43,386 nt of DNA from a virus (taxonomy: Duplodnaviria > Heunggongvirae > Uroviricota > Caudoviricetes): IMG/VR virus record IMGVR_UViG_2563366976_000013; one strand, 5' to 3'. This document shows positions 3,367 through 41,453 of this stretch, one piece after another. Numbering within the stretch: position 1 is the stretch's first letter; each line of letters opens with the position of its first letter. The position numbers and the translations under genes were made by a program. The notes beneath the pieces are model-generated. The model made no database searches. It was not told the DNA's origin and saw only the letters and a program-made list of their open reading frames with translations.

Positions 3367-3394
3367 ACCCGCAATATTTTGCGGGCTTTTTTTT
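3367..3394 (+). terminator. Rho-independent terminator oriented for plus-strand (antisense to late operon)
   Basis: Stem CCCGCAA/TTGCGGG followed by T8 on plus strand; minus-strand version lacks U-run. Confidence 0.45.
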
Positions 3395-6300
3395 AACGTT
3401 CTTCCAGAGACTGAACCCGCTCTTTTATCTTATCCATTTCTCTGCGCTGCCATGCTGCCTCGATATAGAATAAGAGATCAGGTCTGACCCCCCATCTAGA
3501 TCCTGCTGGCGTTATTTCAACGCGCTCAATGATGTCTTCTATTACCATCACTGGATTATCATCCTCATCAACAATGATGCTCCCGTCATTATCAGTCAGC
3601 GGCATTTCCCTTTGGCCAGTAATGACGTCATCATATACTGCGGGATAATCGTCATAGCAAAGAAAGGCATAGCGGCATGTTGTGCTTTCTTCTTCCATGA
3701 GTCCGTGAGAAATAAGAACATCACGAAGTTGCTGCGCGATTACACCATGATGTATCCTCGCCCCTTCTTCCCCCTTTATAGCGACAGCGTTCAGCCATTT
3801 ATAAGCGATATACCTGACGTCACCCCAGGCATCCAGCAATGCTTCGTCAGGAGAGACCGGCTCTGTCTTTAATGTTCCGTCACTGGTAACCACAGGATTG
3901 GAGCCAAGATAAACTATCGAGAACCTGTTTCCCGGACCACCAAGAGCATTTACATTATCAAGATAAGGTTTAACATCTCCGTTCTCAAAAAGATGTTCGA
4001 GTGCGTTATATACCGCGCGACGTGGAGTACTGCTTCCGGAACCATGCAACGTTATCATTGCACCATCTGCTGAAGACGTTGTTTCACCGCCGCTAACGAT
4101 TAATCTCTGAGCGGTAACATCATCAGACGGTACTTTCTTCGCAATAATGGCGTAATTACCCTCAAGTTTGACTTCCGCGCGAACTTGTCCTGATGTACCT
4201 GCATGGACAGTCAGTGACTGGACGGCAACATCATCTGTGAAATCAACGGGTACAGGAACCGTCCTCACGCCTGACGTCGACATAAAAGTAGGAAGCGTTC
4301 TGTTAGGAGTGGCTCCGTAGACAAAATCCCTTGAAACAAATTCTTCCTGTTTAATTTTCACCCTGAAACAATACAAATCAGCCGGGTGACCATCGTGAAC
4401 ATAAGGATATTTTCTGTTGTTATCCCCTATGCTCCATGGGTTTAGAAAGTCTTCCCCACCGAAAATGTAGTACAGCCAGTTGTCTTTGATACAAACTGAA
4501 CCAACACCAACCGCAGAGTTAACTATTCCGCCCTGATAAATCTGATCAGTAACATTAACCCACTCTACATTATCCAGACTCCACTCATTGACGTTAACTC
4601 TGGTCATAAATGTTCTTGGATAATTTCCTGCATAACGGTTATCAGGTTCTCCTCCTTCCCACTCACCAAATGCGCGCTCACTGCCAAAAATAATCAGCTC
4701 ATCGCCAACTTTGGCAAAAGGAAGGTTTGAGTGATGAACATTATTTGGGAAGCGAAGAGAATTCCATGATGTACCTAAATCAGAGCTTCTGTGCAATGAA
4801 CTACCGGGTTGAGTACTTAATGTCCCCCTGGTCGTCAGATACAGAATGCCATCATAATATTTTACACATGGCTCAGATGCATTCGCCTCATATTCTACAG
4901 GTATGCGTCTGCGAACAAAGCTACCAGGAGAACCGAAAGCATCAGAGAAATAGAGTATCCCAAGCTCGCGTGGACCAATATCACCATTATGGTAGCCAAC
5001 AGCAAAACTGTTATCGCTAATCGTCGCAAAACTGTGAATCTCAGTAACAGGAGTGCTTCCGTCAACAAAAGAAGGAATAGTTCCAAGACTGGTTTTTCTC
5101 CATGGTGACGAGTGAAATGATGTGCCAAAACTCCAGTATCTACCCTCGTTATTCTGATCCACATCCTGGGTATTTTGCGTCGTAACTGTAAAGGTATTTT
5201 TATCAATAACAGTAGTCACCGTCATATTCCCGGTAACACCTGTAACACCAGAGTTTGAGAAGTTGACAAAATCACCAGCAAATAATCCGTGATCAGTAAT
5301 GCGAATATAAGCGACTTGCTGATTTGCTGCTTTCGTTATACCACCATAAACGCGAAGGCTGCGACTCATTGGGCGATCCCACAACTCTGCAACCTGCAGT
5401 TTATTTCCTCTCACGGTCCGCGTCTCAATTACAGCAAAAAGGCGATTTCTGACAACCCCCATACTCATGCAGTGATAGTTAACTGTGGGATAGTTTTTAT
5501 GTAAATCTGTAAGCCATTCCGGCGTTGTCCAGGTCTTCCCGTCATCTCCTGAGCGAACCCATGCAACATGGAGGTTATTTACACCATGGCGGTCTCCAGC
5601 CATAAAAGGCGCATAGATGACATTGTCATATACAAACGTTTTATCCTGCGTCCAGGCGTTGTACCACGGTGTATCTGTAATTTTAAATAACTCTCCCTGG
5701 ATAAAATCTTCAGAAGCATAAAAAAGAGGCTGGCCCGGTATTCTCTCAAATAAAAAACGAGCATTTTTAAATCGACTGACATCCGGAAGAGTTGATACTT
5801 TAAAAGTAAGCCCTAATCCGTCAATTTTATAACCTGGAGATGAGGCTTCAAGGCACGCGCTTATTGCAGTGGAATCGTCATTTATACCATCACCAACAGC
5901 TCCAAAATCTTTGGGGCTAATAGCATCACGCATTTTATCCTGGAACGTTCGGTACACAGCCCCAGAACCATACTGAATAAACCAACCAAAACCACCAACA
6001 ACTCCGGAGATTGCAGCATCGACATAATTACGCATTGAGCGATTATTTACAGCGTCCTGCTCAAATGATGGATCTGCAAGGTTAGAAATTTTGTTTTGCT
6101 TTGCATCGTAATATTTTGCAAGCAAAGATGGTTTCATCAATGCACGTCTGAACCACCCAAAACATTGCTGGATCAGCATCGTCAGGTAGTCAAAGGCATC
6201 TTCATGCACTTCGGGGAAAAATTTTCCCTGATTGCGAAGGTCTGTGTCCTGCACTACATCAAGCACACGATCTATCGTAATTCGCCATCCAGTAGCAAGC

Positions 6301-6512
6301 GGAGACGGAAGAACCACAGAACCGCCACTATAAGTGCCCGCCCCAGTTACCGTATAACCGGTATCCAGAACCAATTCTGTTACGTTTCCGTTCAGGTCAG
6401 ACACCTGAACAACCAGGTCTGATTTTCTGAAAATTCGAAAAGTATACGGAAACGATGTCGTAACGCCGTTACCGGTGTATTCGTTGTGGTCAACTTCGGT
6501 TGAGACCGTCAT
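3393..6512 (-). CDS. Tailspike: endo-N-acetylneuraminidase (endosialidase, K1 polysialic acid capsule depolymerase) with T7 gp17-like N-terminal adaptor and C-terminal intramolecular chaperone domain
   Basis: Long colinear matches to K1-phage endosialidase as recalled from memory (GQPLFYASEDFIQGELFKITDTPWYNAW, TVNYHCMSMGV, C-terminal ARIHHGVIAQQLRDV...CRYAFLCYDDYP); N-terminal region resembles T7 tail-fibre N-domain; RBS GGAG. Confidence 0.85.
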   Translation of the reverse strand: MTVSTEVDHNEYTGNGVTTSFPYTFRIFRKSDLVVQVSDLNGNVTELVLDTGYTVTGAGTYSGGSVVLPSPLATGWRITIDRVLDVVQDTDLRNQGKFFPEVHEDAFDYLTMLIQQCFGWFRRALMKPSLLAKYYDAKQNKISNLADPSFEQDAVNNRSMRNYVDAAISGVVGGFGWFIQYGSGAVYRTFQDKMRDAISPKDFGAVGDGINDDSTAISACLEASSPGYKIDGLGLTFKVSTLPDVSRFKNARFLFERIPGQPLFYASEDFIQGELFKITDTPWYNAWTQDKTFVYDNVIYAPFMAGDRHGVNNLHVAWVRSGDDGKTWTTPEWLTDLHKNYPTVNYHCMSMGVVRNRLFAVIETRTVRGNKLQVAELWDRPMSRSLRVYGGITKAANQQVAYIRITDHGLFAGDFVNFSNSGVTGVTGNMTVTTVIDKNTFTVTTQNTQDVDQNNEGRYWSFGTSFHSSPWRKTSLGTIPSFVDGSTPVTEIHSFATISDNSFAVGYHNGDIGPRELGILYFSDAFGSPGSFVRRRIPVEYEANASEPCVKYYDGILYLTTRGTLSTQPGSSLHRSSDLGTSWNSLRFPNNVHHSNLPFAKVGDELIIFGSERAFGEWEGGEPDNRYAGNYPRTFMTRVNVNEWSLDNVEWVNVTDQIYQGGIVNSAVGVGSVCIKDNWLYYIFGGEDFLNPWSIGDNNRKYPYVHDGHPADLYCFRVKIKQEEFVSRDFVYGATPNRTLPTFMSTSGVRTVPVPVDFTDDVAVQSLTVHAGTSGQVRAEVKLEGNYAIIAKKVPSDDVTAQRLIVSGGETTSSADGAMITLHGSGSSTPRRAVYNALEHLFENGDVKPYLDNVNALGGPGNRFSIVYLGSNPVVTSDGTLKTEPVSPDEALLDAWGDVRYIAYKWLNAVAIKGEEGARIHHGVIAQQLRDVLISHGLMEEESTTCRYAFLCYDDYPAVYDDVITGQREMPLTDNDGSIIVDEDDNPVMVIEDIIERVEITPAGSRWGVRPDLLFYIEAAWQRREMDKIKERVQSLEER

Positions 6513-7038: not shown

Positions 7039-7090
7039 AGTAATCAGGCACTGGCAAAATCCAGTGCCGGGATTGGTCTCCCGGATTACT
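7039..7090 (+). ncRNA. Conserved structured leader RNA element upstream of ant1 (three-way junction fold), followed by leader terminator
   Basis: AGTAATC...GATTACT outer stem enclosing hairpins GGCACTGG-caaaat-CCAGTGCC and CCGGGA-ttggtc-TCCCGG; near-identical copy in ant2 leader (11160-11213, minus strand). Confidence 0.45.
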
Positions 7091-7104
7091 ACAGAGGCAC
7101 ATAT

Positions 7105-7124
7105 GCCGCATAAGCGGTTTTTTT
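7105..7124 (+). terminator. Leader terminator/attenuator upstream of ant1
   Basis: Short GC stem GCCGC-ataa-GCGG followed by T7 run; analogous stem plus T7 in ant2 leader. Confidence 0.45.
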
Positions 7125-7278
7125 ATGTGTAAAGCGCACCTATTCTATGGTGGGCTGTGTGGGGGCACCGAAAGGTGCGCCGGGTTCCTTTGTAGCCGGT
7201 AAGACCAACTCTGCACAGTTCACCACCATCTGATTGGTCTCAGCGGTGGTGATTAACCTAACTACAAAGGTGATCGCC

Positions 7279-7971
7279 ATGAATACCAAACCTTCCATCT
7301 TTTCCTTTGAGTCATCCTGCCAGATCCGTATGTTCATGATTGACGGAGAACCTTGGTTTGTCACCAAAGATGTGTGCAATGCTTTGAATATTGATGTTAC
7401 ACAAGCGAGAAAACTTGATAAAAAAGGCTGGAACAAAAAGGGGCTGTATTCAATACAGACCCCTGGTGGAATACAAGAACTATCCATCGTTTCAGAATCA
7501 GGTCTCTACATCCTTATTCTGCGTTGCAAAGAGGCAATGACTGAGGGAACGAGAGCATTCAGATTTCTTGAATGGGTTACAGGCGAAGTACTTCCTCAGA
7601 TCCGCCGCACCGGAAGCTACATTAAAAACTCGCTCCCGCAGGAAGAACGCATAAAGATGGTTGCCGACCAGGTAGCCAACGCCACGGCGTCAGCAGTAAT
7701 GCAGGCGATGAAGATAGAGAACAAAACCTACAGCGCCCCACTGAAGCCCGGCTACCGCAGCCTGATTCATTCGCCGTCTGGTGTTCTCGGCCTGACGGAG
7801 AACTCACTGCTGATGAATCTGCTGAACCAGTTACAGGACGACGGGCACGACGTATCGGGCGCGGCGGCGGAGCTGACCACCATGTTCTGCTACATCGTCG
7901 GTGTGAGCAAATGCCTGCGTGATATCCAGACCCACGCGGAATACATCAACGACAAGGCAGGGTTCTTCTGA
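7279..7971 (+). CDS. Antirepressor paralog 1: Bro-N/KilA-N-type N-terminal domain plus shared Ant C-terminal domain
   Basis: IDGEPWFVTKDVCNAL motif (Bro-N-like); C-terminal 100 aa near-identical to the other two paralogs; start at ATG 7279 with RBS AAAGGTGA (ORF track begins at upstream TTG 7234). Confidence 0.75.
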   Translation: MNTKPSIFSFESSCQIRMFMIDGEPWFVTKDVCNALNIDVTQARKLDKKGWNKKGLYSIQTPGGIQELSIVSESGLYILILRCKEAMTEGTRAFRFLEWVTGEVLPQIRRTGSYIKNSLPQEERIKMVADQVANATASAVMQAMKIENKTYSAPLKPGYRSLIHSPSGVLGLTENSLLMNLLNQLQDDGHDVSGAAAELTTMFCYIVGVSKCLRDIQTHAEYINDKAGFF

Positions 7972-10312: not shown

Positions 10313-10969
10313 TCAGAAGAACCCTGCTTTGTCGTTGATGTATTCCGCGTGCGTCTGGATATCACGCAGGCATTTGCTCACACCGACGATGTAGCAGAAC
10401 ATGGTGGTCAGCTCCGCCGCCGCGCCCGATACATCGTGCCCGTCTTCCTGCAACTGGTTCAGCAAATTCATCAGCAGTGAGTTCTCCGTCAGGCCGAGAA
10501 CACCAGACGGCGAATGAATCAGGCTACGGTAGCCGGGCTTCAGTGGGGCGCTGTATTCTTTTTTGTCTTCCAGCTTGATCGCCTCCATAATGGCGGGCAT
10601 GAAGCCTGACAAGACCTTCTCCACTTTTGTTTCTTGTTGTCTTAAACGTTTCTCGCATTCAATGAAGTAGCGTCGCACCTGGCGACCTTTTTCGTTACGC
10701 TCGACCATCGCCAGCTCTTTGGCTGTATCAAGGGTGAGGTGGTACTCTTTGCGGTTGTGGCCGCCTCTACCAGATGTTTGCTTTCCCAAATTGGAAAGCA
10801 AAATATAGTCTTGATTTTCAATGAATTCGTATTCTGATATGCGATTTGTAATCCATGCTGCAAACACCTTTTTAACACCTAAAAAAGCGTGCAGATCGCG
10901 GGCATTACAAAGTAGGGCTGTTTCGTTAGATATAGTGCCGTTGAATACGGGGATGAGTTGAGCGTTCAT
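10313..10969 (-). CDS. Antirepressor paralog 2: AntA-type N-terminal domain plus shared Ant C-terminal domain
   Basis: N-terminus [23 protein letters not shown], middle [20 protein letters not shown]; C-terminus near-identical to ant1 and ant3; RBS GGAGACG. Confidence 0.75.
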
Positions 10970-11125
10970 GATGGCGTCTCCACTTAGCGAATTACATCAC
11001 CACCGCTGAGACCAATCAGATGGTGGTGAACTGAACGGAGTTGGTCTTACCGGCCTAAGTGGTACCGGCGTCCTTTCGGACCCCCATTCAGCCCACCATA
11101 ATTCTGGCATGACTGTGCTATACGC

Positions 11126-11285
11126 ATAAAAAAACCACGTCTGGCGTGGTATGCGCCACTTAGTAATCCGGGAGACCAATCCCGGCACTGGATTTTGCCA
11201 GTGCCCGATTACTATGGCACAAGAGGAGTGCGATGTAAATTTACCGAAAAGGTAATGATAAACGCTAAGAAATATTAAAATCAAC
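11126..11285 (-). promoter_or_regulatory. ant2 promoter, operator (11241-11255), structured leader (11160-11213) and leader terminator (11126-11150)
   Basis: Mirror image of ant1 control region with near-identical structured element; palindrome TTACCgaaaaGGTAA. Confidence 0.5.
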
Positions 11286-24493: not shown

Positions 24494-24790
24494 TCACTCC
24501 TGTTCACTGGCCTCTTTGGCCATCTTCAAATACTGTTCAGGGCAATGCGCCATAACGCGCTGAAACAGTTCCAGCGCCAGATTGCGTTGCCCCTCATTAA
24601 ATGCCATTGCCATAGCGTCCATCGGTGAGATAGCGGAAAACACACGGCCTTTCTCCAGCACCGACCAGACAACGCGACGCCCCTGTTCACTGCTCATGAC
24701 AAAGCGAATGTCATCAATTTCACGCTGTGCCATGTCACGTTGCTTACGGGCGTTTTCTTCTTTCAGTTGATCGTCTTCGTAATCTGTCAT
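24494..24790 (-). CDS. Small head-assembly-region protein (hypothetical)
   Basis: 98 aa, ATGA overlap with portal stop. Confidence 0.4.
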   Translation of the reverse strand: MTDYEDDQLKEENARKQRDMAQREIDDIRFVMSSEQGRRVVWSVLEKGRVFSAISPMDAMAMAFNEGQRNLALELFQRVMAHCPEQYLKMAKEASEQE

Positions 24791-26466
24791 TGTGATTGCC
24801 CACCCTGACCACTAACTGCATTCGCCATAGCTGACAAAACACTCGGATCCGAAGTTTTAGCTTCGCTTAGCGTCTTGGCACCCTGTGCCGCCGCCATCCC
24901 CATCGCCATCATTTGTTGCTGCTGTTGTTGCTGTGCCCGTTGCTGGCGAACCTGCTCAACCTGTTCCTGCGGAACAATGACGGTTGGAGACACTCCGGAC
25001 ATATCAGCGAATGCATCGATCGCCTGATCAACGTTGAGTTTGTCGAGAGCTTCTGGTTTCGCTTGCGCAAGTTGACCAATGAAGTTAACCGTGGACGCCA
25101 GACTGGACAGGCCGATAGACTTCTGCGCCTGAGCCATGACGGAAATGTATTCGACCTTCAGGGGCATGCCTTCCATCGCGTCAGGCGGTGGCGGCAGCAT
25201 GTTTTTACGCACCATCATCGAGAAAGCGCGGTCAATGAGAGGATTAAGACATTCGTCGTTCAGACGCTCCAGAACCGGCCCCAACATCAGAAGTTTTTCT
25301 TCTTTCATTTCGATCACCGCTTCAACAGGCATCGAGCGGGTATTGATGTTCTGCAACATCATGAACAGATCGACAAAGTAGGCGCTGTTAATGATTTGAC
25401 GAGTGTCCTGAATGTCTGCCACCAAATCTGCTGTACTGGGGTTAACCAGATAAGCAGGCCTGAAGCCATCCTGACCAGTAATCTGATCGATATACGTGAT
25501 GTCGCCAGGAAGAAGGGAGGCGCGCTGATTCTTGAGGGAAGTCGGAGCAACCATCGGCGGATTGGTGGCTTTATCAATCAACTGCGACTTGCGCTTCTGA
25601 AGAAGCTGCAATGCCTTAACAGATCCAAGCGCCAGCATACCCGGGCATGATGATCCATAAACATCTTCGCCGTTAACTTCCCAGCGCGGAGCCATAATTG
25701 GAAACTCATCGAATCCGGACTCACGCAACAACTTGTCGTTATCGCCACCAACCTCGTAATAAACCGATTTGAATGGCTTGTTCTTGCTATCCAGCTTCGA
25801 TGTATCGCGGTCAATGTTCGGGTAAACCGAATGCATCACTTCAATCCACTTCTCGTAGGTGCCGCTTTCCCACATGCTTTTTACGGATTCGCTGACGTTA
25901 TTTAGCCCGAACTCCTGAACAAGCTGACGAACAGTCATAGAGAACTTGCGGAAACAGGTGTCCACACTGCCACGAGGTGAGTTAGCCAGGTAGTAACTGC
26001 CTATCGGGAATGGCATTGTGCGAATGATGTCCTCGTCATCCTCCAGCACCGCCATTGCACCAGTGCTGTATGTGCCGAGGCTTCCGTATAACTGCGGAAG
26101 GGACTGGTAGAGATTCGACTTATTGAACATATCGTTCATGCGGTTCTGAACTGCCTCAAGCCACAACTTAACAGGGCCATAGTCCATCATTTCAGGATCT
26201 GGCGTAGCCAGGCGAAACCACGGACGGGCGGGGCTTGTTATGCCTGACATCATGCCGCTGGCAAGAGTGCGCGCCGCCATAGTCCCGGTCGAATCAATAA
26301 TGCGTGTATTGCGTCGATCGTTACGGTTAACCTCAGAAGTCAGAAAGCGGGAACCACGCGGGTTGATGTAATCACTCAACTCGCGCCAGTGCGACTCGAA
26401 CGACTGACGCTCGCTTTCAAGTTGTGCGAACTGTTTGTTCAATCGCTCTTTAGTTGTTTCCGCCAT
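24787..26466 (-). CDS. Portal protein
   Basis: 559 aa, first large gene of head module, Gln-rich C-terminus; RBS GGAG. Confidence 0.75.
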   Translation of the reverse strand: MAETTKERLNKQFAQLESERQSFESHWRELSDYINPRGSRFLTSEVNRNDRRNTRIIDSTGTMAARTLASGMMSGITSPARPWFRLATPDPEMMDYGPVKLWLEAVQNRMNDMFNKSNLYQSLPQLYGSLGTYSTGAMAVLEDDEDIIRTMPFPIGSYYLANSPRGSVDTCFRKFSMTVRQLVQEFGLNNVSESVKSMWESGTYEKWIEVMHSVYPNIDRDTSKLDSKNKPFKSVYYEVGGDNDKLLRESGFDEFPIMAPRWEVNGEDVYGSSCPGMLALGSVKALQLLQKRKSQLIDKATNPPMVAPTSLKNQRASLLPGDITYIDQITGQDGFRPAYLVNPSTADLVADIQDTRQIINSAYFVDLFMMLQNINTRSMPVEAVIEMKEEKLLMLGPVLERLNDECLNPLIDRAFSMMVRKNMLPPPPDAMEGMPLKVEYISVMAQAQKSIGLSSLASTVNFIGQLAQAKPEALDKLNVDQAIDAFADMSGVSPTVIVPQEQVEQVRQQRAQQQQQQQMMAMGMAAAQGAKTLSEAKTSDPSVLSAMANAVSGQGGQSQ

Positions 26467-26480
26467 TTCAATGACTCCGG

Positions 26481-26687
26481 TTACTGACCAAGCAGTGTTT
26501 TACCGCTGGTATTAGCGGTTGATGTGTCGCCCTGAGAACCGGTAAGCAGCGTAGAACTACGACCAGCAGCAGCGCGACGGCGACGTGTTTCTTCGTCGCG
26601 GGCATCAACAACGGCGGCATCCTGCTCCTGTGGTGCTGCCTGAACTTCTGGTGTTGCAGGCACTGATGGTGAGCTACCCATGCACAT
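26481..26687 (-). CDS. Small hypothetical protein upstream of portal
   Basis: 68 aa; translation initiation region GGAGTCATTGATATG mirrors that of portal (GGAGTCATTGAAATG). Confidence 0.35.
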   Translation of the reverse strand: MCMGSSPSVPATPEVQAAPQEQDAAVVDARDEETRRRRAAAGRSSTLLTGSQGDTSTANTSGKTLLGQ

Positions 26688-26755
26688 ATCAATGACTCCG
26701 TACGCAATTAAATTATTACCAATTTAACCACATATGATTTATTTATCGTAGATAG

Positions 26756-26792
26756 TTGACATTTAACGCACAAATTATTACCTTTTAGGTAA
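26756..26792. promoter_or_regulatory. -35-like TTGACA and operator palindrome TTACCttttaGGTAA at terminase-portal moron
   Basis: Palindrome 26778-26792; TTGACA at 26756-26761 on plus strand. Confidence 0.4.
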
Positions 26793-27114
26793 CCAAAGAG
26801 TTCATTCCGGTTACTAACCTGACTGGCTTGTCGTTAAATTGAACAGGTGGAGTGAGCTTTTATTTTGAGCAGTACGGCGTATGGCACATGCGCCGATAGC
26901 GGTCTGGATACGTTTAAGGGGCACCCTCCCTTGCTCGGGCAAACGAACCAGGTAGCCGGAATGTGCAAGTCGAGCGGTTTTATTCCGCGCACGGGGATTC
27001 ACCATCCCGGCGATTCGGTGTGACGCCTCGGAAGAGACGAGGGTACAACGATGAGAGCATTTATGGAGCCGCGACAAAGTGTGGCGCCTTAACAGGCTAA
27101 GTGCTCTCAGCGTT

Positions 27115-27191
27115 GTGGCATTAGCTCAGTTGGACAGAGCAACCGCCTTCTAAGCGGTTGGTCGCAGGTTCGAATCCTGCATGCCACGCCA
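27115..27191 (+). tRNA. tRNA-Arg (anticodon UCU, reads AGA)
   Basis: Manual cloverleaf: acceptor GTGGCAT/ATGCCAC, D-arm GCTC/GAGC, anticodon stem ACCGC/GCGGT with loop CTTCTAA, T-arm GCAGG-TTCGAAT-CCTGC, discriminator G, CCA encoded. Confidence 0.85.
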
Positions 27192-27234
27192 GAATCACGC
27201 CTGAGGACCGTGATGCCAGAAGTTCCAGGGGCTT

Positions 27235-27277
27235 GGCGGTGATGGTTTCCCTTGAAGGCCTATCACCGCCCTTTTTA
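27235..27277 (+). terminator. Rho-independent terminator downstream of tRNA
   Basis: GGCGGTGAT...ATCACCGCC stem then CTTTTT. Confidence 0.55.
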
Positions 27278-27353
27278 CAGCAGGACGCCATTGCGATGAC
27301 TTCATGCTGTAAACCCGTACAGCCACGGAAGGCATAACTCATTGCTTCCAGTT

Positions 27354-27379
27354 CGCCCGGTTCGCCGGGCATTTTTTTG
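27354..27379 (+). terminator. Second rho-independent terminator
   Basis: GCCCGG-ttcg-CCGGGC stem then T7. Confidence 0.6.
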
Positions 27380-27394
27380 CCTGATGACCACAAA

Positions 27395-27409
27395 TTACCT
27401 TAAAGGTAT
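27395..27409 (+). promoter_or_regulatory. Operator-like site TTACCttaaaGGTAT overlapping RBS of moron ORF
   Basis: 14/15 match to palindrome family, 5 nt before ATG 27414. Confidence 0.35.
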
Positions 27410-27413
27410 AATC

Positions 27414-28262
27414 ATGAAAAACTTTAAGGTAATTAGTATGTTCGAATCGTTCAAAGAGCTGTTTTTATCTACTGCCAATACTGCCGTGCATCGAGCTAAA
27501 AACCCTGTGCTTGGTGCTTTTGTTATGTCCTGGTGCGCCTTCAACTGGAAATCACTTCTTTATCTGTTTTTTAGCAAATCAAATATAATAGATAAAATTT
27601 CATACATCTCAGATAACAGCACATGGAAAACTGTTATGTTTTATCCATGCTTATCTGTAATTACTATCTGCTGCCTATTACCATGGGTAAACAATATCAT
27701 TAACGTATGGCAAGCAAAACCTCTTGATAATAATGACTCAATCGAAAACCACCGGAAGGCAAGAAAAATACAACGTGAAACACGGCTACAGAGATTGCTG
27801 GCTAAAAAAGACATTACTTACGAAAAAGTAAAAACAGGCGCTGAAAAAAACATTCAAGACATGAAAGAGGAAATAATTCTTTCAAAAGACAGAATGGGAC
27901 AACTCACATCTGAATTGAAAGAGAGGGAGACAGAACTGCGCGCAGCACAAGCTCGTATTTTAGAATTATCTAAGGTTATTGATGAAACAACATCTAAACT
28001 AGAAAATCTAGAAAAAACTCACAAAAATTTAAAAAACGAATATGAGTCCTATAAGAAAAACATTCCTTTGGCAACAAATAATACAATTGCTAATGGGCTT
28101 GTAGGTCTAAAATCATTACAAGACTTTAATGAGTCCGTAAAGAAACTTGGCGTTACTGGAATTAACAATCCAGAAATCAGTACATTATTGAATAATCCTC
28201 TAGTAAATATAAATGGTGATTTAAATTCCACCTATCAAAGAAAATCAAAAACACAAAAGTAA
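27414..28262 (+). CDS. AT-rich moron: membrane-anchored coiled-coil protein (candidate abortive-infection/exclusion factor)
   Basis: 283 aa from ATG 27414; two hydrophobic helices then long Lys/Glu-rich coiled coil; low GC vs flanks; opposite strand to late operon, inserted between terL and portal. Confidence 0.55.
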   Translation: MKNFKVISMFESFKELFLSTANTAVHRAKNPVLGAFVMSWCAFNWKSLLYLFFSKSNIIDKISYISDNSTWKTVMFYPCLSVITICCLLPWVNNIINVWQAKPLDNNDSIENHRKARKIQRETRLQRLLAKKDITYEKVKTGAEKNIQDMKEEIILSKDRMGQLTSELKERETELRAAQARILELSKVIDETTSKLENLEKTHKNLKNEYESYKKNIPLATNNTIANGLVGLKSLQDFNESVKKLGVTGINNPEISTLLNNPLVNINGDLNSTYQRKSKTQK

Positions 28263-28265
28263 AAA

Positions 28266-29735
28266 TCATTCAAATGGGTCATAGTCTGTTATAGCCCTGC
28301 CCTGCTGCTGCCGTGGGTCATTAGTTTTCTTGGCTACCGGGAACGCAAACGTCAGCAGTAGCGCATCGCCTTTACCAGGAGAACGCCCAAGCCGCTCCTT
28401 GATATCTTCCTTCGGTTCGATAACGATTTTACCGTCCACTCGAACTTTGTACTCTGCCGCCGACAGGTCGTCCGCTGTTTCCTGGTCATCAAGCATGCCG
28501 CCCAGCCTCAGCCATGTCTTGCATGAGTTGAACATCTCCCCACGCTTGTTGAGCATCTGCGGGTCAGTAGACGCGCCACCAAACGGAACAAGTTGCCATG
28601 TACGACCCCAGCCGTCACCGATTGACTTCAGACCAGTTCCGTAACCGAAGTCGATGAACACTGCGTCAGCCTGGTACTGGTCTTCAAAGTCAGCGATACG
28701 CTTCGCCATTATCAGATCGTCAGTGGTCTTGTTGCCAGTCCACAGCACCTTACTGTGTAGCCCCTGCCGCAGGTATATCACAGCGTCATCAACGCCGGAG
28801 TATGCCGGGTCAACGCCGATTATCACCGGAGCATGTGCAACCTGCGCAGCGGTTACCACCCGTTTCATTGCCTCGTCAGTAAGACCGGTAGGGATAAACT
28901 GCAATTCAGATGCATCAGGGAATATGCCACGCACACGGATTTTAACGAAGTCGCTGTCTTCCCCGTAGTCATCAACCCATTTCTGCAACTGCTGTTTGTT
29001 GGTACCTTCCACCGTCCGACTGTCAATCTGCGCAGTTTTCCAGCGGTGTTTATACTTGCGGAAACATTCACGGAAACGTCCGGTATTACGCGTCGGGTTT
29101 CCGAACGCCACCCAGATAATCTCAGTGTCTTCGTCCGTAAGCGCACCCTCAGCAACTTCCCACACCAGATCCGCAATGTTCGACGCTTCATCGAATACCA
29201 CGATGATGCGTTTGCGCTCGTTGTGTAGTCCGGCGAATGCCTCAGTGTTGTGCTCAGACCAGGGGATTGCGTCAGCTCGCCACCGCTTGTCGTGCCCAGG
29301 ATCATTGCTGTACATCGCAGTAGCGGTACAGGTAAACCAGTCTTTCGTGATAGCAAGGTTCGACCACTTGATAATTTCCGGCCAGGTCTTCGTTCGTAGC
29401 TGGTTGTCGGTGTTGGCGGTCACCACGACCTTACAATCCTCGCAAGTGGACATGCCCCAGTTGATCAGCATTGAGATGAATGCGGATTTACCAATACCGT
29501 GACCAGAAGCGCGTGCCAGCATAAGCGGCTGATAGCGCGTCTCTGGATTCTGCAGGTGATCACGTATCTCTCGGAACGCATCGGCCTGCCACTGACGTGG
29601 ACCGGTGGCATGTGCCAGTTCAGTACCCTCTTCCCCCCACGGGAACGCATAGAGGGCATAGCCAAGCGGATCGTGAGTGAACCCTGCAATATCCTCGATC
29701 AACTGCTCTTCAGGAGATAACGCTGTATCTGTCAC
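28266..29735 (-). CDS. terL: Terminase large subunit
   Basis: Walker A-like GHGIGKS, nuclease-type acidic motifs in C-half; GTG start overlapping terS stop. Confidence 0.85.
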   Translation of the reverse strand: MTDTALSPEEQLIEDIAGFTHDPLGYALYAFPWGEEGTELAHATGPRQWQADAFREIRDHLQNPETRYQPLMLARASGHGIGKSAFISMLINWGMSTCEDCKVVVTANTDNQLRTKTWPEIIKWSNLAITKDWFTCTATAMYSNDPGHDKRWRADAIPWSEHNTEAFAGLHNERKRIIVVFDEASNIADLVWEVAEGALTDEDTEIIWVAFGNPTRNTGRFRECFRKYKHRWKTAQIDSRTVEGTNKQQLQKWVDDYGEDSDFVKIRVRGIFPDASELQFIPTGLTDEAMKRVVTAAQVAHAPVIIGVDPAYSGVDDAVIYLRQGLHSKVLWTGNKTTDDLIMAKRIADFEDQYQADAVFIDFGYGTGLKSIGDGWGRTWQLVPFGGASTDPQMLNKRGEMFNSCKTWLRLGGMLDDQETADDLSAAEYKVRVDGKIVIEPKEDIKERLGRSPGKGDALLLTFAFPVAKKTNDPRQQQGRAITDYDPFE

Positions 29736-30328
29736 TGATTACCATCCTGACGTTCTTTGAGTCGCTTCCTGGCTGCTGCTATGCGATCAGCAATTGTCAC
29801 ATTCACATTAACATCCAGACGTTCTTTGAACGCGTTGACATCAACATGCTTACCAATCAGCTCAAGGTTCTTCACCTTGTCAGGCCATTTAATTTTTTTG
29901 AGGATTGTCTCTATCGAATCCTCGTTCATGTTCATGATGGTCGATGACAGATCAAAGCCACTAAGCGTAGTGCGCCAGATTTTCGGCCACTCACGGATTG
30001 GTTTAAGGCTCCCATCGTCGTTGAGGATGTCGATCACGTCCATCTGGTCGATCTCCACCAGGCGCATGAGAACGTAATCAGCACTGACACGCATTCGTTT
30101 GTTGCGCTCCTCCATCAACTCGGCAATCCGTTTTTGAATGCGTTCATCGCGCATCATGACACTGGCTTTAACTGCCGCTGTATTTGGGGAGAATCCTGCG
30201 TTAATCGCTGCCTGAGTCTGGTTTTCAGGCGTTTTGATGTATGACTGGCAATAAGCCTCCTGCATTGCTGTTAGTGGCTTAAATTGCGTTGATTTGCGTT
30301 TATAGGTTTTAGGTTCAGCAGGCATCAT
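29732..30328 (-). CDS. terS: Terminase small subunit
   Basis: Position immediately upstream of terL with overlap; start placed at MMPAEPK with RBS GGTGG (ORF track extends to 30406). Confidence 0.6.
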   Translation of the reverse strand: MMPAEPKTYKRKSTQFKPLTAMQEAYCQSYIKTPENQTQAAINAGFSPNTAAVKASVMMRDERIQKRIAELMEERNKRMRVSADYVLMRLVEIDQMDVIDILNDDGSLKPIREWPKIWRTTLSGFDLSSTIMNMNEDSIETILKKIKWPDKVKNLELIGKHVDVNAFKERLDVNVNVTIADRIAAARKRLKERQDGNQ

Positions 30329-30446
30329 AACCACCGTGGTAATAGTTACCGTTTTGGTAATAGTACCATGCAAAATAAAGCCGCCATAGTTGGCGGCAGT
30401 ATTCAAAACCCGTCAAATTCATCATGCATAATCTACTCGTGACATG

Positions 30447-36173: not shown

Positions 36174-36260
36174 CCAGATTTGGTTTTTTATTACCTTTGA
36201 GGTACGAATAGATATGAAAAGACCGCCGGGTGGCGGTCTACAGAGGGTTGTAGCTGGATA

Positions 36261-36645: not shown

Positions 36646-37230
36646 ATGAAAAGTATCCAGGACGTCCGCAGGCAAAATCTCAACGACTTGATCGACCGTG
36701 AATTCAATGGTGTTCAGACGCGGATGGCAGAAAAACTTGGAACTCAGGCAAATCTGGTAAACCGCTGGGCTCTTGGCAAGAAGGTTATCGGCGACCAGGT
36801 TGCACGAAAAATTGAAGCTGCCGCCAATAAACCCCGTAACTGGCTTGATATTGATCGTTCGCTTTCTCAGGAGGGTTTTCAGCCTGTCGGCCCGAGCGAT
36901 ATAGGTCAGCTGGCGGCTCACAACCTGGAACGCTGGATGAGCGAAAGCCGCGACCTTTCAACACAGGGAAAACTTCACCGCGCATCCGGCGTCGCCCAGG
37001 TGACAATCAGCCGCCTGTTAAACAATGAGGTCAGCGTTTCCATTTCCACCCTGGAGAATGTTGCATCCGCATTCGGGCGTCACGGATATGAACTACTGAT
37101 TCACCCGCACGACCCTGCGACTATCAACTATGACCGCTCGCGCTACGCATTGTTACCCGAAACCGAGAAAGCAAAGATCGAAAGTTACATTGAATTTGTC
37201 ATCAACCAGAACGAAAAAAGCAAAAAATAA
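36646..37230 (+). CDS. CI-like repressor with two HTH regions and no recognisable LexA/S24-type self-cleavage domain
   Basis: 194 aa; HTH-like segments near residues 20-45 and 115-140; C-terminus lacks Ala-Gly/Ser..Lys peptidase signature; divergent from Cro-like gene. Confidence 0.55.
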   Translation: MKSIQDVRRQNLNDLIDREFNGVQTRMAEKLGTQANLVNRWALGKKVIGDQVARKIEAAANKPRNWLDIDRSLSQEGFQPVGPSDIGQLAAHNLERWMSESRDLSTQGKLHRASGVAQVTISRLLNNEVSVSISTLENVASAFGRHGYELLIHPHDPATINYDRSRYALLPETEKAKIESYIEFVINQNEKSKK

Positions 37231-41129: not shown

Positions 41130-41453
41130 AATCACGCCTGACGAATCGCGATTATCTCGCTATTGGTATTGCAGAGATTGCTGGACTCAGTGGCGCATGA
41201 TTTGACAATGCCGCCAGAGCTATCGCATACTGACCGCACTAGAACTTCAAAGCGGTCACCCGCACCCGATAGCTTTGCGGCTTTTTTATGCCTGCAATTT
41301 GGCATAGTCACATCCGTACAAAGGTCGGGTGGAGAGGCGTAATACAATACCCAAAAGGGGAATATGCCCGGAGCGTCTTTGAAGGCTCTAGTTGACACCC
41401 GATCACCAGCTACTAACTGGTGATTGCTAACTAAAACTTCAAAGGAGGTCATC

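Follow-up and report, generated by a model that had tools for sequence, protein, structure and literature searches.

A structured RNA family with a tRNA slot precedes an accessory-gene position beside terL in a phiV10/epsilon15-like prophage of Escherichia coli

RESULTS

The gap between terL and the head module

The virus record IMGVR_UViG_2563366976_000013, a 43,386-nucleotide (nt) stretch of DNA referred to here as the window, was identified by megablast as a phiV10/epsilon15-like (Uetakevirus) prophage of Escherichia coli. Between its terL gene and a small open reading frame (ORF) of the head module lies a gap of about 1.6 to 1.8 kb, whose features sit on the plus strand and oppose the late operon. 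An initial annotation of this DNA had read the gap as some 1.8 kb inserted between the terminase and portal genes, a moron carrying a tRNA-Arg(UCU) gene, two intrinsic terminators (T1 and T2 below), and an AT-rich gene, which we call ORF-X. It did not mention what lies directly upstream of the tRNA, a structured RNA element at 26871 to 27114 whose core (Table 1), judged by comparative alignment, belongs to a previously unannotated RNA family.

Megablast comparisons with related phages showed which part of the gap is variable. Positions 26690 to 27378 are 98 to 99% identical in phiV10, TL-2011b, O157 typing phages 9 and 10, and other Uetakeviruses, and they can still be detected at 74 to 84% identity in Salmonella SPN1S-type and Klebsiella relatives. 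Among the Uetakevirus relatives, the variable stretch is confined to about 27379 to 28265. The tRNA and both terminators are genus-wide; the cargo is limited to the final ~0.9 kb. Taken as a whole, the gap does not represent a recent insertion, and the tRNA and terminators belong to a genus-wide transcription unit of the RNA instead of being parts of a moron. The cargo slot is filled by different genes in the relatives. In phiV10 it encodes a PF13876 protein (N4 gp49/Sf6 gene 66), in SPN9TCW a 168-amino-acid (aa) protein without assigned function, and in Klebsiella phage ST512-KPC3phi13.3 (locus L007, 3011 to 3532), directly behind T2, a PF11195 Tad2-like protein of the Thoeris anti-defense family.

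Architecture and covariation of the RNA core

The core consists of a hairpin (P1), a helix (P2) around a variable insert, a variable P3, and two further hairpins, P4 and P5, the latter with a GAAGAGA loop. A pseudoknot, PK2, pairs the CACC loop of P4 with a downstream GGUG. In 29 representatives, the four helices and the pseudoknot had 95.9% of their cells paired and contained 12 double-change pairs (66 cells). None of 500 shuffles reached these values, and sliding the partners by 1 to 3 columns left 27 to 40% pairing and 0 to 5 double-change pairs. The helix substitutions are compensatory and include G-C to A-U swaps, the G-U pairs are strand specific, and four sequences, which come from two or more sub-lineages, have AACC/GGUU for the P4 loop and PK2. 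The alignments also contain a series of invariant blocks (UAUGGCACAUG, AGCGGUC, GGUAGCCGGAAUGUGCAAG, CACCA..GGCG, GGUGUGAC, and the GAAGAG loop). The hairpins between these blocks covary on both sides and gather their insertions and deletions in the hairpin tips, and invariant blocks of 17 to 19 nt, single stranded or in the pseudoknot, are kept across unrelated phage groups. A covariance model of the core, R1, recovered 62 copies at 102 to 164 bits across 65 loci, divergent ones included. The P1 loop (GCACAU) could also pair over a long range with AUGUGC; all six pairs are invariant, and the variants favor an extended 8-bp P1 hairpin instead.

Hypothetical proteins are annotated over the element in some records, and window ORFs of 52 and 87 aa overlap it, as might be expected if it were a protein-coding gene or a site acting at the DNA level. 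With frames anchored on the invariant 17-mer, however, even the best one is open in no more than 19 of 50 distinct copies, and the lengths of the copies are spread over all three classes modulo 3. This frame test ruled out the coding reading. The compensatory helix changes, the strand-specific G-U pairs, and the indels in hairpin tips likewise argue for an RNA, and we consider any non-RNA reading very improbable. Two deposited hypothetical-protein genes, both on the opposite strand, are probably misannotations: p04 of phiV10 (L001, 3432 to 3683), which lies over the tRNA/terminator region, and gp37 of mEp460 (L003, 2443 to 2811), which lies over the RNA core.

Searches of Rfam 15 gave no match at E ≤ 10 on positions 26650 to 27450 besides the tRNA, no match of the element to the GOLLD, ROOL, Y RNA/YrlA, C4, or tmRNA families, and, at gathering thresholds, nothing over the element in 13 other loci. 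A full-text search for conserved strings, P1 ban/trnI, and prophage structured RNAs found no description of the RNA within the searchable literature. At a separate place in the window, positions 41323 to 41412 on the plus strand, Rfam reported a match to sRNA-Xcc1 (62.9 bits; gathering score, 53) that overlaps the ends of two ORFs.

Table 1 Features of the terL-side gap, its flanking genes, and the palindrome sites of the window
Feature	Coordinates	Strand	Details
Portal gene	24787-26466	-	PF12236
Head-module ORF, 68 aa	26481-26687	-	phrog_831
Promoter of the RNA-tRNA unit	26756-26784	+	-35 TTGACA (26756-26761), 17-nt spacer, -10 TACCTT (26779-26784)
Operator-like palindrome ATTACCTTTTAGGTAA	26777-26792		Overlaps the -10 of the RNA-tRNA promoter
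Transcribed leader	26793-26870	+	Contains segment GTCGTTAAATTGAACAGGTGGAGTGAGCTT
Structured RNA core, ~178 nt	26871-27048	+	Covariance model R1, 148 bits
Clamp helix ACAACGATGAGAGCATTTA/TAAGTGCTCTCAGCGTTGT around a variable hairpin	27045-27116	+	Abuts the tRNA 5' end
tRNA-Arg(UCU), encoded CCA	27115-27191	+	ARAGORN; Rfam RF00005, 73.3 bits (gathering score, 29)
Small conserved hairpin ATCACG...CGTGAT	27194-27214	+	After the tRNA/tRNA-like slot in lambdoid and Uetakevirus copies
Intrinsic terminator T1	27235-27276	+	Stem GGCGGTGAT/ATCACCGCC (27235-27270), then CTTTTT; 9-bp G+C-rich stem, 18-nt loop, T5
Hairpin between T1 and T2	27274-27313	+	Inverted repeat I3, 18 nt, 83% complementary
Intrinsic terminator T2	27355-27378	+	Stem GCCCGGTTCGCCGGGC (27355-27370), then ATTTTTTT (T7)
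Predicted cargo-gene promoter	27384-27412	+	ATGACC, 17-nt spacer, TATAAT; 10/12 matches in promoter scan
Second copy of the palindrome	27394-27409		Over the spacer and -10 of the ORF-X promoter
ORF-X	27438-28262	+	274 aa with the probable start, 282 aa with a start at 27414
terL	28266-29735	-	ORF list and library scans
terS	29732-30406	-	ORF list and library scans
Palindrome sites in the window	6616, 6996, 8042, 9210, 11240, 26777, 27394, 30346, 34189, 34251, 36190, 36575, 37287, 37349		

Distribution and genomic contexts

The RNA core was found in 1839 of 5426 complete E. coli genomes (about 34%), with up to four copies per genome. In these genomes 554 of the places are on plasmids, which fits P1-like phage-plasmids. 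Among 40 records sampled across the ranking, none carried any annotation beneath the core match. The G+C-rich spacer upstream of the tRNA matches very different phages at 70 to 83% identity, including cdtI, mEp460, Stx2c- and Stx2a-converting phages, P1, P7, D6, SJ46, and phages of Klebsiella, Enterobacter, and Stenotrophomonas. A scan of a 596-Gb genome set with the invariant 17-mer is expected to give about 70 hits by chance, and we therefore kept only hits that came with other conserved blocks. More than 100 distinct copies of the RNA passed this filter. Most of the nonenterobacterial hits lacked the other blocks and were discarded, and some loci dropped in this way were regained as divergent copies with the covariance model. 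A viral contig (L078) holds two cores on the minus strand, at 3994 to 4156 and 4801 to 4961, about 800 nt apart; one of them is divergent (114 versus 147 bits).

The phages that carry the RNA place it in several contexts. In P1 the core is part of the C1-controlled ban operon, where it begins 14 nt after trnI (tRNA-Ile2) and runs straight into ban. In mEp460 and other lambdoid loci, the order is the cI terminator, two OL-like operators, a PL-like promoter, and then the RNA, which would therefore be the 5' end of the early-left transcript. There is no conserved protein neighbor common to the phage groups that carry the RNA. In ten lambdoid-type loci, the gene that comes first after the RNA was searched with Pfam for an N-like antiterminator; there was no match, and a divergent N is possible.

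The clamp and the tRNA slot

The clamp that follows the core in the window is formed by pairing of 27045 to 27063 with 27098 to 27116, an inverted repeat (I1) of 19 nt with 89% complementarity. Most other copies have the clamp CAACGAUGAGAGCAYU ... AGUGCUCUCAGCGUUG, with differing inserts. In the leader of the window, the segment GTCGTTAAATTGAACAGGTGGAGTGAGCTT appears by eye to resemble the 3' half of the clamp of other copies (L093 and L007). The clamp ends were also considered as integron attC core sites (AAC...GTT), a reading that was dropped because they do not match the consensus.

The clamp is followed by a tRNA-like module that is closed by GUGGUG/CACCAC and includes D-like (GCGCA-GGCUGA-UGCGC) and T-like (GCCGG-AGAUCAGCA-CCGGC) hairpins; in one variant the T arm is canonical (GGGUUCGAAUCCC). 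In the Uetakeviruses of E. coli, Salmonella, and Klebsiella, the tRNA-Arg (GUGGCAU...) occupies exactly this slot, and a Citrobacter Uetakevirus has a tRNA mimic there instead. The slot is followed by the small hairpin and then by a T1-type terminator, to which several lineages add a T2-type terminator. Six loci (L008, L011, L087, L088, L126, and L149) have another conserved 3' module, aaucagccauucacgcuaagcau...gggacuggaagaguuaccacuuggagacgguccu, after the core, replacing both the clamp and the slot.

The tRNA-Arg(UCU) of the initial annotation was supported by both ARAGORN and the tRNA covariance model (Table 1). The Rfam alignment and the sequence give a D loop of AGUUGGACA, an anticodon loop of CUUCUAA, and a 3' end of ...CCACG-CCA. 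Recognition by arginyl-tRNA synthetase follows established identity rules (A20, C35, U36, and a purine at 73), and all of these elements, as well as the 3' CCA, are present. Per 1000 codons, the window ORFs use AGA 8.4 times and AGG 5.7 times, which is 13.8% and 9.3% of their arginine codons. These frequencies are several-fold above those of E. coli K-12, about 2 and 1 per 1000, in line with the initial proposal that the tRNA could serve rare AGA codons. AGA is concentrated in the endosialidase tailspike gene (17 codons), tail genes, and early genes; the portal, terL, and capsid genes have none. Because of this enrichment and clustering, it is plausible that the tRNA supplements AGA decoding. 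The occupancy of the slot suggests that the tRNA also serves, or served at first, as a module for the structure and processing of the RNA unit. The tailspike gene itself (3393 to 6512, minus strand) encodes an endosialidase with PF12217, PF12219, and a Peptidase_S74 chaperone, and the phage therefore probably targets K1-capsulated E. coli.

Promoters and an operator-like palindrome

The promoter arrangement of the RNA-tRNA unit, TTGACA-N17-TACCTT with its palindrome, is kept in L006, L052, L061, and L136 despite differing spacers. The arrangement at the ORF-X promoter, with the second copy of the palindrome, also occurs in L183 and L193. Across the window, the 16-bp palindrome ATTACCTnnnAGGTAA has 14 sites, with 27 strand-matches versus 0.63 expected. 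A gene for an HTH_3 (Cro/C1-type) protein at 36646 to 37230 has palindromes on both sides, at 36190/36575 and 37287/37349, and the palindrome is also found at the promoters of two isrK/C4-antirepressor modules. Rfam places these isrK and C4 antisense RNA modules at 7048 to 7230 (plus strand) and 11019 to 11204 (minus strand). They are followed by antirepressor-type genes, Bro-N (7234 to 7971) and AntA (10313 to 10969), so that one prophage contains two immI-like systems.

From this distribution, we infer that the palindrome is a putative operator of the prophage repressor. Since it lies over both plus-strand promoters and around the repressor-like gene, expression from them is more likely to be repressor controlled and early than constitutive in the lysogen. 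On this reading, the lysogen would keep both the RNA-tRNA unit and ORF-X repressed, and both would be turned on early after induction or infection. The positions of the RNA in the P1 ban operon and behind lambdoid PL would, by analogy, agree with repressor-controlled early expression.

ORF-X, the cargo gene

The initial annotation described an AT-rich ORF on the opposite strand that converges on terL with a 3-nt gap, and the ORF list and a GC scan agree. The stop codon of ORF-X at 28262 is 3 nt from that of terL, which ends at 28266, and its GC content is 0.30 to 0.37 versus 0.50 to 0.57 in the flanks. The frame initially given as 27414 to 28262 is indeed open; its start is probably 27438. All 29 aligned homologs begin at the second methionine, the predicted -10 hexamer ends at 27412, so that the predicted transcription start falls after the first ATG, and an AAGG Shine-Dalgarno sequence precedes 27438. 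In the alignment of the 29 homologs, the N-terminal ~160 aa are strongly conserved and contain the motif NPvfGAFxxSWcAFNWK, a transmembrane segment, and a basic amphipathic stretch, and the C-terminal coiled coil and tail are hypervariable. The AlphaFold model contains a long helix of 75 residues. Only one of the two proposed N-terminal transmembrane helices (residues ~72 to 97) passes the Kyte-Doolittle criterion; the other segment, 31 to 53, scores below 1.2. The charge around the hydrophobic segments suggests that both termini are cytoplasmic.

ORF-X matches phrog_4780 of PHROGs, a family with no assigned function. Pfam and NCBIfam returned coiled-coil noise only, a profile search of PDB sequences likewise gave coiled-coil noise, and Foldseek found nothing at E < 1 in PDB and BFVD. 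In ten distant members of the family, Pfam gave coiled-coil signals and no informative domain. No structural or domain homolog was thus found in Pfam, NCBIfam, PDB, or BFVD, and a homolog in the structural module was the finding that the initial annotation had named as speaking against its reading. Searches of PADLOC-DB 2.0 gave weak matches only (E ≥ 1e-4), all in the coiled coil at residues 105 to 250 (LmuB, DruC, JetC, and PD-Lambda-1). When 1.84 billion representative proteins were searched with the N-terminal domain, 1350 clusters matched at E ≤ 0.001; in the 150 best matches listed, this domain nearly always stands at the N terminus, in proteins of 200 to 400 aa.

The full ORF-X region is present in only 18 complete E. 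coli genomes and is absent from close relatives at the same site. Members of the family were seen in three settings. One is the same slot of Uetakeviruses. A second is the nin region of Klebsiella lambdoid prophages, on the opposite strand; remnants of a decayed T1/T2 region are still present ahead of the gene there and suggest that it was transferred from a Uetakevirus locus. In the third, Cronobacter sakazakii (L190 to L192, 5001 to 5846), the homolog is a stand-alone chromosomal gene outside any prophage, flanked by genes for a LacI-type regulator and a short-chain dehydrogenase. These three unrelated settings of a single-gene family indicate that ORF-X works alone and is mobile. The moron claim thus stands in part; ORF-X is mobile cargo of deviant GC with its own promoter-like site and is absent from relatives, but it has no terminator of its own, none being found between its stop codon at 28262 and terL at 28266.

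In the initial annotation, ORF-X was a candidate defense moron with the shape of an exclusion or abortive-infection factor. In such a model, it would be expressed constitutively from the prophage, its inner-membrane product would exclude superinfecting phages or abort their infection, and the tRNA would simply serve rare AGA codons. Its low GC and own promoter, its absence from close relatives, the single-gene family that reaches the opposite strand of the Klebsiella nin region and an orphan position in the Cronobacter chromosome, a C terminus that is hypervariable as under an arms race, and the frequent AGA codons of the phage would all fit such a gene. However, the palindrome over its promoter is shared with the flanks of the repressor-like gene and with the antirepressor promoters, which argues against simple constitutive lysogenic expression and suggests that ORF-X is off in the lysogen. 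The protein matches no PADLOC, Pfam, or NCBIfam family or fold beyond coiled-coil noise. There is also the lack of an own terminator, the genus-wide occurrence of the tRNA and terminators as part of the RNA unit, and the presence in the same slot of a Tad2-like protein, which is of an anti-defense type. We consider the constitutive defense moron unlikely. The likeliest role of ORF-X, though less probable than not, would be that of an early-expressed, membrane-anchored accessory factor for exclusion or counter-defense, with a variable cytoplasmic coiled coil that sets specificity. This assignment has against it that the all-helical AlphaFold model, outside the confidently placed 75-residue helix, is of modest confidence (overall pLDDT, 68; pTM, 0.28) and that no similarity to exclusion, abortive-infection, or anti-defense proteins was detected in the libraries named above.

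Terminators and read-through

Both intrinsic terminators of the initial annotation were recovered, each as a G+C-rich hairpin followed by a U run. T1 has a folding energy of -19.9 kcal/mol in a terminator finder, is also folded by RNAfold, and can be read from the sequence; a simple scan overlooked it because its loop is 18 nt long. Terminators homologous to T1 (TTGGCGGT...ACCGCC-TTTT) trail the lambdoid copies, and a T2 homolog closes the unit of copy L093. The hairpin between T1 and T2 is kept in phiV10, SPN9TCW, and the Klebsiella phage. Of 44 distinct contexts, 31 have a strong terminator (≤ -15 kcal/mol) on the same strand within 800 nt downstream of the core, compared with 6 on the opposite strand and 3 upstream.

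The genes behind these terminators often leave no space for a promoter. The cargo genes of phiV10 and Klebsiella phage ST512-KPC3phi13.3 begin about 20 nt past the T-run of T2, with a ribosome-binding site and no room for a promoter, and transcription of them would consequently have to pass T1 and T2. In mEp460, a promoter scan found no promoter-like site for the first early-left gene, which lies behind the T1-like terminator. Because of the conserved downstream terminators, the promoterless genes behind them, and an architecture like that of putL in phage HK022, we rank a cis-acting processive antiterminator of the put kind as the single most likely function of the RNA core, a choice made by analogy and held tentatively.

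The main rival, and a real possibility, is that the RNA is a stand-alone, trans-acting stable RNA. It would be the product of an RNA gene of about 590 nt that ends at T1/T2, from which RNase P and tRNA 3' processing enzymes would free a core-plus-clamp RNA of about 240 nt; this RNA would bind a conserved host factor or decoy a host tRNA-targeting defense early, and the downstream cargo would be expressed by terminator leakage or from its own promoters. One strong same-strand terminator after most copies is what such a gene would have, and core-only copies with a convergent terminator behind them exist (L084 and L140). The adjoining tRNA or tRNA-like modules (the tRNA of the window, trnI 14 nt upstream in P1, and tRNA-like modules elsewhere, one of them with a canonical T arm) and the self-promoted ORF-X of the window point the same way, and the invariant blocks of 17 to 19 nt across unrelated phages without a conserved protein neighbor fit a host target. 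A stand-alone RNA is harder to reconcile with the promoterless cargo genes just behind T2 in phiV10 and the Klebsiella phage, with the lambdoid loci, where an RNA gene closed by its terminator would, from its place between PL/OL and the early-left genes, cut those genes off, and with P1, where the core continues straight into ban.

DISCUSSION

We propose that the terL-side gap of this phiV10/epsilon15-like prophage is an accessory unit whose transcription opposes that of the late operon, in the order promoter, RNA core, clamp, tRNA-Arg, small hairpin, T1, T2, and cargo slot. A repressor would silence the unit in the lysogen, and it would be switched on early after induction or infection. RNase P cleavage at the tRNA 5' end would free the RNA core with its clamp, and the tRNA would supplement AGA decoding for tail and early genes. 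The RNA core would let RNA polymerase pass T1 and T2 into the cargo slot or, in lambdoid phages, into the early-left operon. As a whole, this explanation by a repressor-controlled RNA-tRNA accessory unit with cargo is the best that we can offer, and we would believe and doubt it in equal measure.

Several points weigh against antitermination or the wider model. The RNA is 2 to 3 times larger than put and shares no HK022 sequence; the tRNA-like modules are not obviously needed by an antiterminator; and a conserved terminator after the RNA is equally expected of a stand-alone RNA gene. In P1-like copies, the terminator finder detected no terminator between the core and ban. In the window, the promoter of ORF-X itself makes read-through unneeded, and read-through would also run antisense into terL there. 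The repressor-operator assignment comes from motif distribution, and the model as a whole is drawn from sequence.

Beyond this one prophage, the copies together may represent an undescribed class of modular phage RNAs that combine a pseudoknotted core, a clamp with swappable inserts, and a slot for a tRNA or its mimic. Such RNAs would act without a phage protein on a conserved host machine at the start of the lytic program, either by making RNA polymerase terminator resistant or by hijacking or decoying a tRNA-processing or tRNA-targeting factor; we judge this proposal to fall just short of evenly balanced. Temperate coliphages such as P1 and the Stx-converting phages have some of the most closely studied genomes, and a covariation-supported RNA has nonetheless stood unannotated at their early promoters, with about 34% of complete E. 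coli genomes carrying it. Antitermination by this RNA alone would explain how the early-left operon is expressed in the many lambdoid phages that lack a recognizable N protein, and the put paradigm would gain a second family that is structurally unrelated. Processing into a trans-acting RNA, with a slot for a tRNA or its mimic, would instead point to a new phage route into host tRNA biology. The palindrome gives a testable regulon map for Uetakevirus lysogeny. As the cargo slot is an accessory-gene hot spot with a Tad2-like gene in one relative, ORF-X and its family of 1350 clusters are reasonable candidates for exclusion or counter-defense. The interest of the locus therefore lies in an RNA family with a tRNA slot at early positions and not in the defense moron for which it was first singled out.

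The features described here can be set beside several known systems. The Pas small RNAs have been reported in RusA/TerB and antiterminator-Q/lysis neighborhoods (bioRxiv 2026.05.13.724894). The RNA is unlike them in context, since it adjoins cI and the Pas RNAs do not. For regulation, the nearest parallel is P1, whose C1 operators are dispersed over the genome (annotation of AF234172). In the window, similarly, a single operator-like motif is dispersed at several operon promoters, including those of the antirepressor modules and the RNA unit; it differs in being a 16-bp palindrome, whereas the C1 operator is asymmetric, and the putative repressor of the window is an HTH_3 protein. With its deviant GC, its promoter-like site, and its replacement by unrelated genes at the same slot in relatives, ORF-X resembles the morons of Hendrix and colleagues and the accessory or anti-defense hot spots of phages. 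In contrast to a moron, ORF-X has no terminator of its own and has a putative repressor operator in its promoter, and the slot in some relatives is fed by the upstream RNA-tRNA unit and is not autonomous.

The closest functional precedent for the favored model is provided by the antiterminator RNAs putL and putR of HK022, which act in cis through the beta-prime zinc-binding domain of RNA polymerase and are reportedly the work of King et al. in Cell in 1996. The putL site is located just downstream of PL and makes RNA polymerase terminator resistant even when it is cut from the transcript (Hwang et al., 2022; PMC9378689). A put RNA is about 70 nt long, with two stem-loops (PMC9378689). The RNA described here is likewise a structured RNA right after an early, probably repressor-controlled promoter, in lambdoid copies after PL/OL as putL is, and it is likewise followed by terminators and then by genes that would need read-through, with no conserved phage protein partner beside it. 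It differs in its core of about 150 to 180 nt with four helices and a pseudoknot, in its clamp and tRNA or tRNA-like modules, and in occurring mostly as one copy per phage as far as searched. Blastn found no similarity to the RNA in the 24- to 32-kb region of HK022, and covariance model R1 found no copy there. Sharing neither sequence nor architecture with put, the RNA is, by these comparisons, not a member of the put family.

GOLLD and ROOL are large ornate RNAs of prophages that often adjoin tRNA genes. Like them, the RNA is large, modular, noncoding, linked to tRNA, and carried by temperate phages; it differs in having no Rfam match to them, in its Enterobacteriaceae hosts, in its smaller size, and in its defined positions at an early promoter or in the ban operon. 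RNase P processing punctuated by tRNA structures is known for the C4 antisense RNA of P1 and P7 and for the stable RNAs of the T4 tRNA cluster. C4 differs from the RNA in both sequence and structure, to which it is unrelated. The likeness is that a noncoding RNA lies right beside a tRNA or tRNA-like structure, in a window that also holds two C4/isrK modules, and by analogy with these systems tRNA-processing enzymes could set the ends of the RNA.

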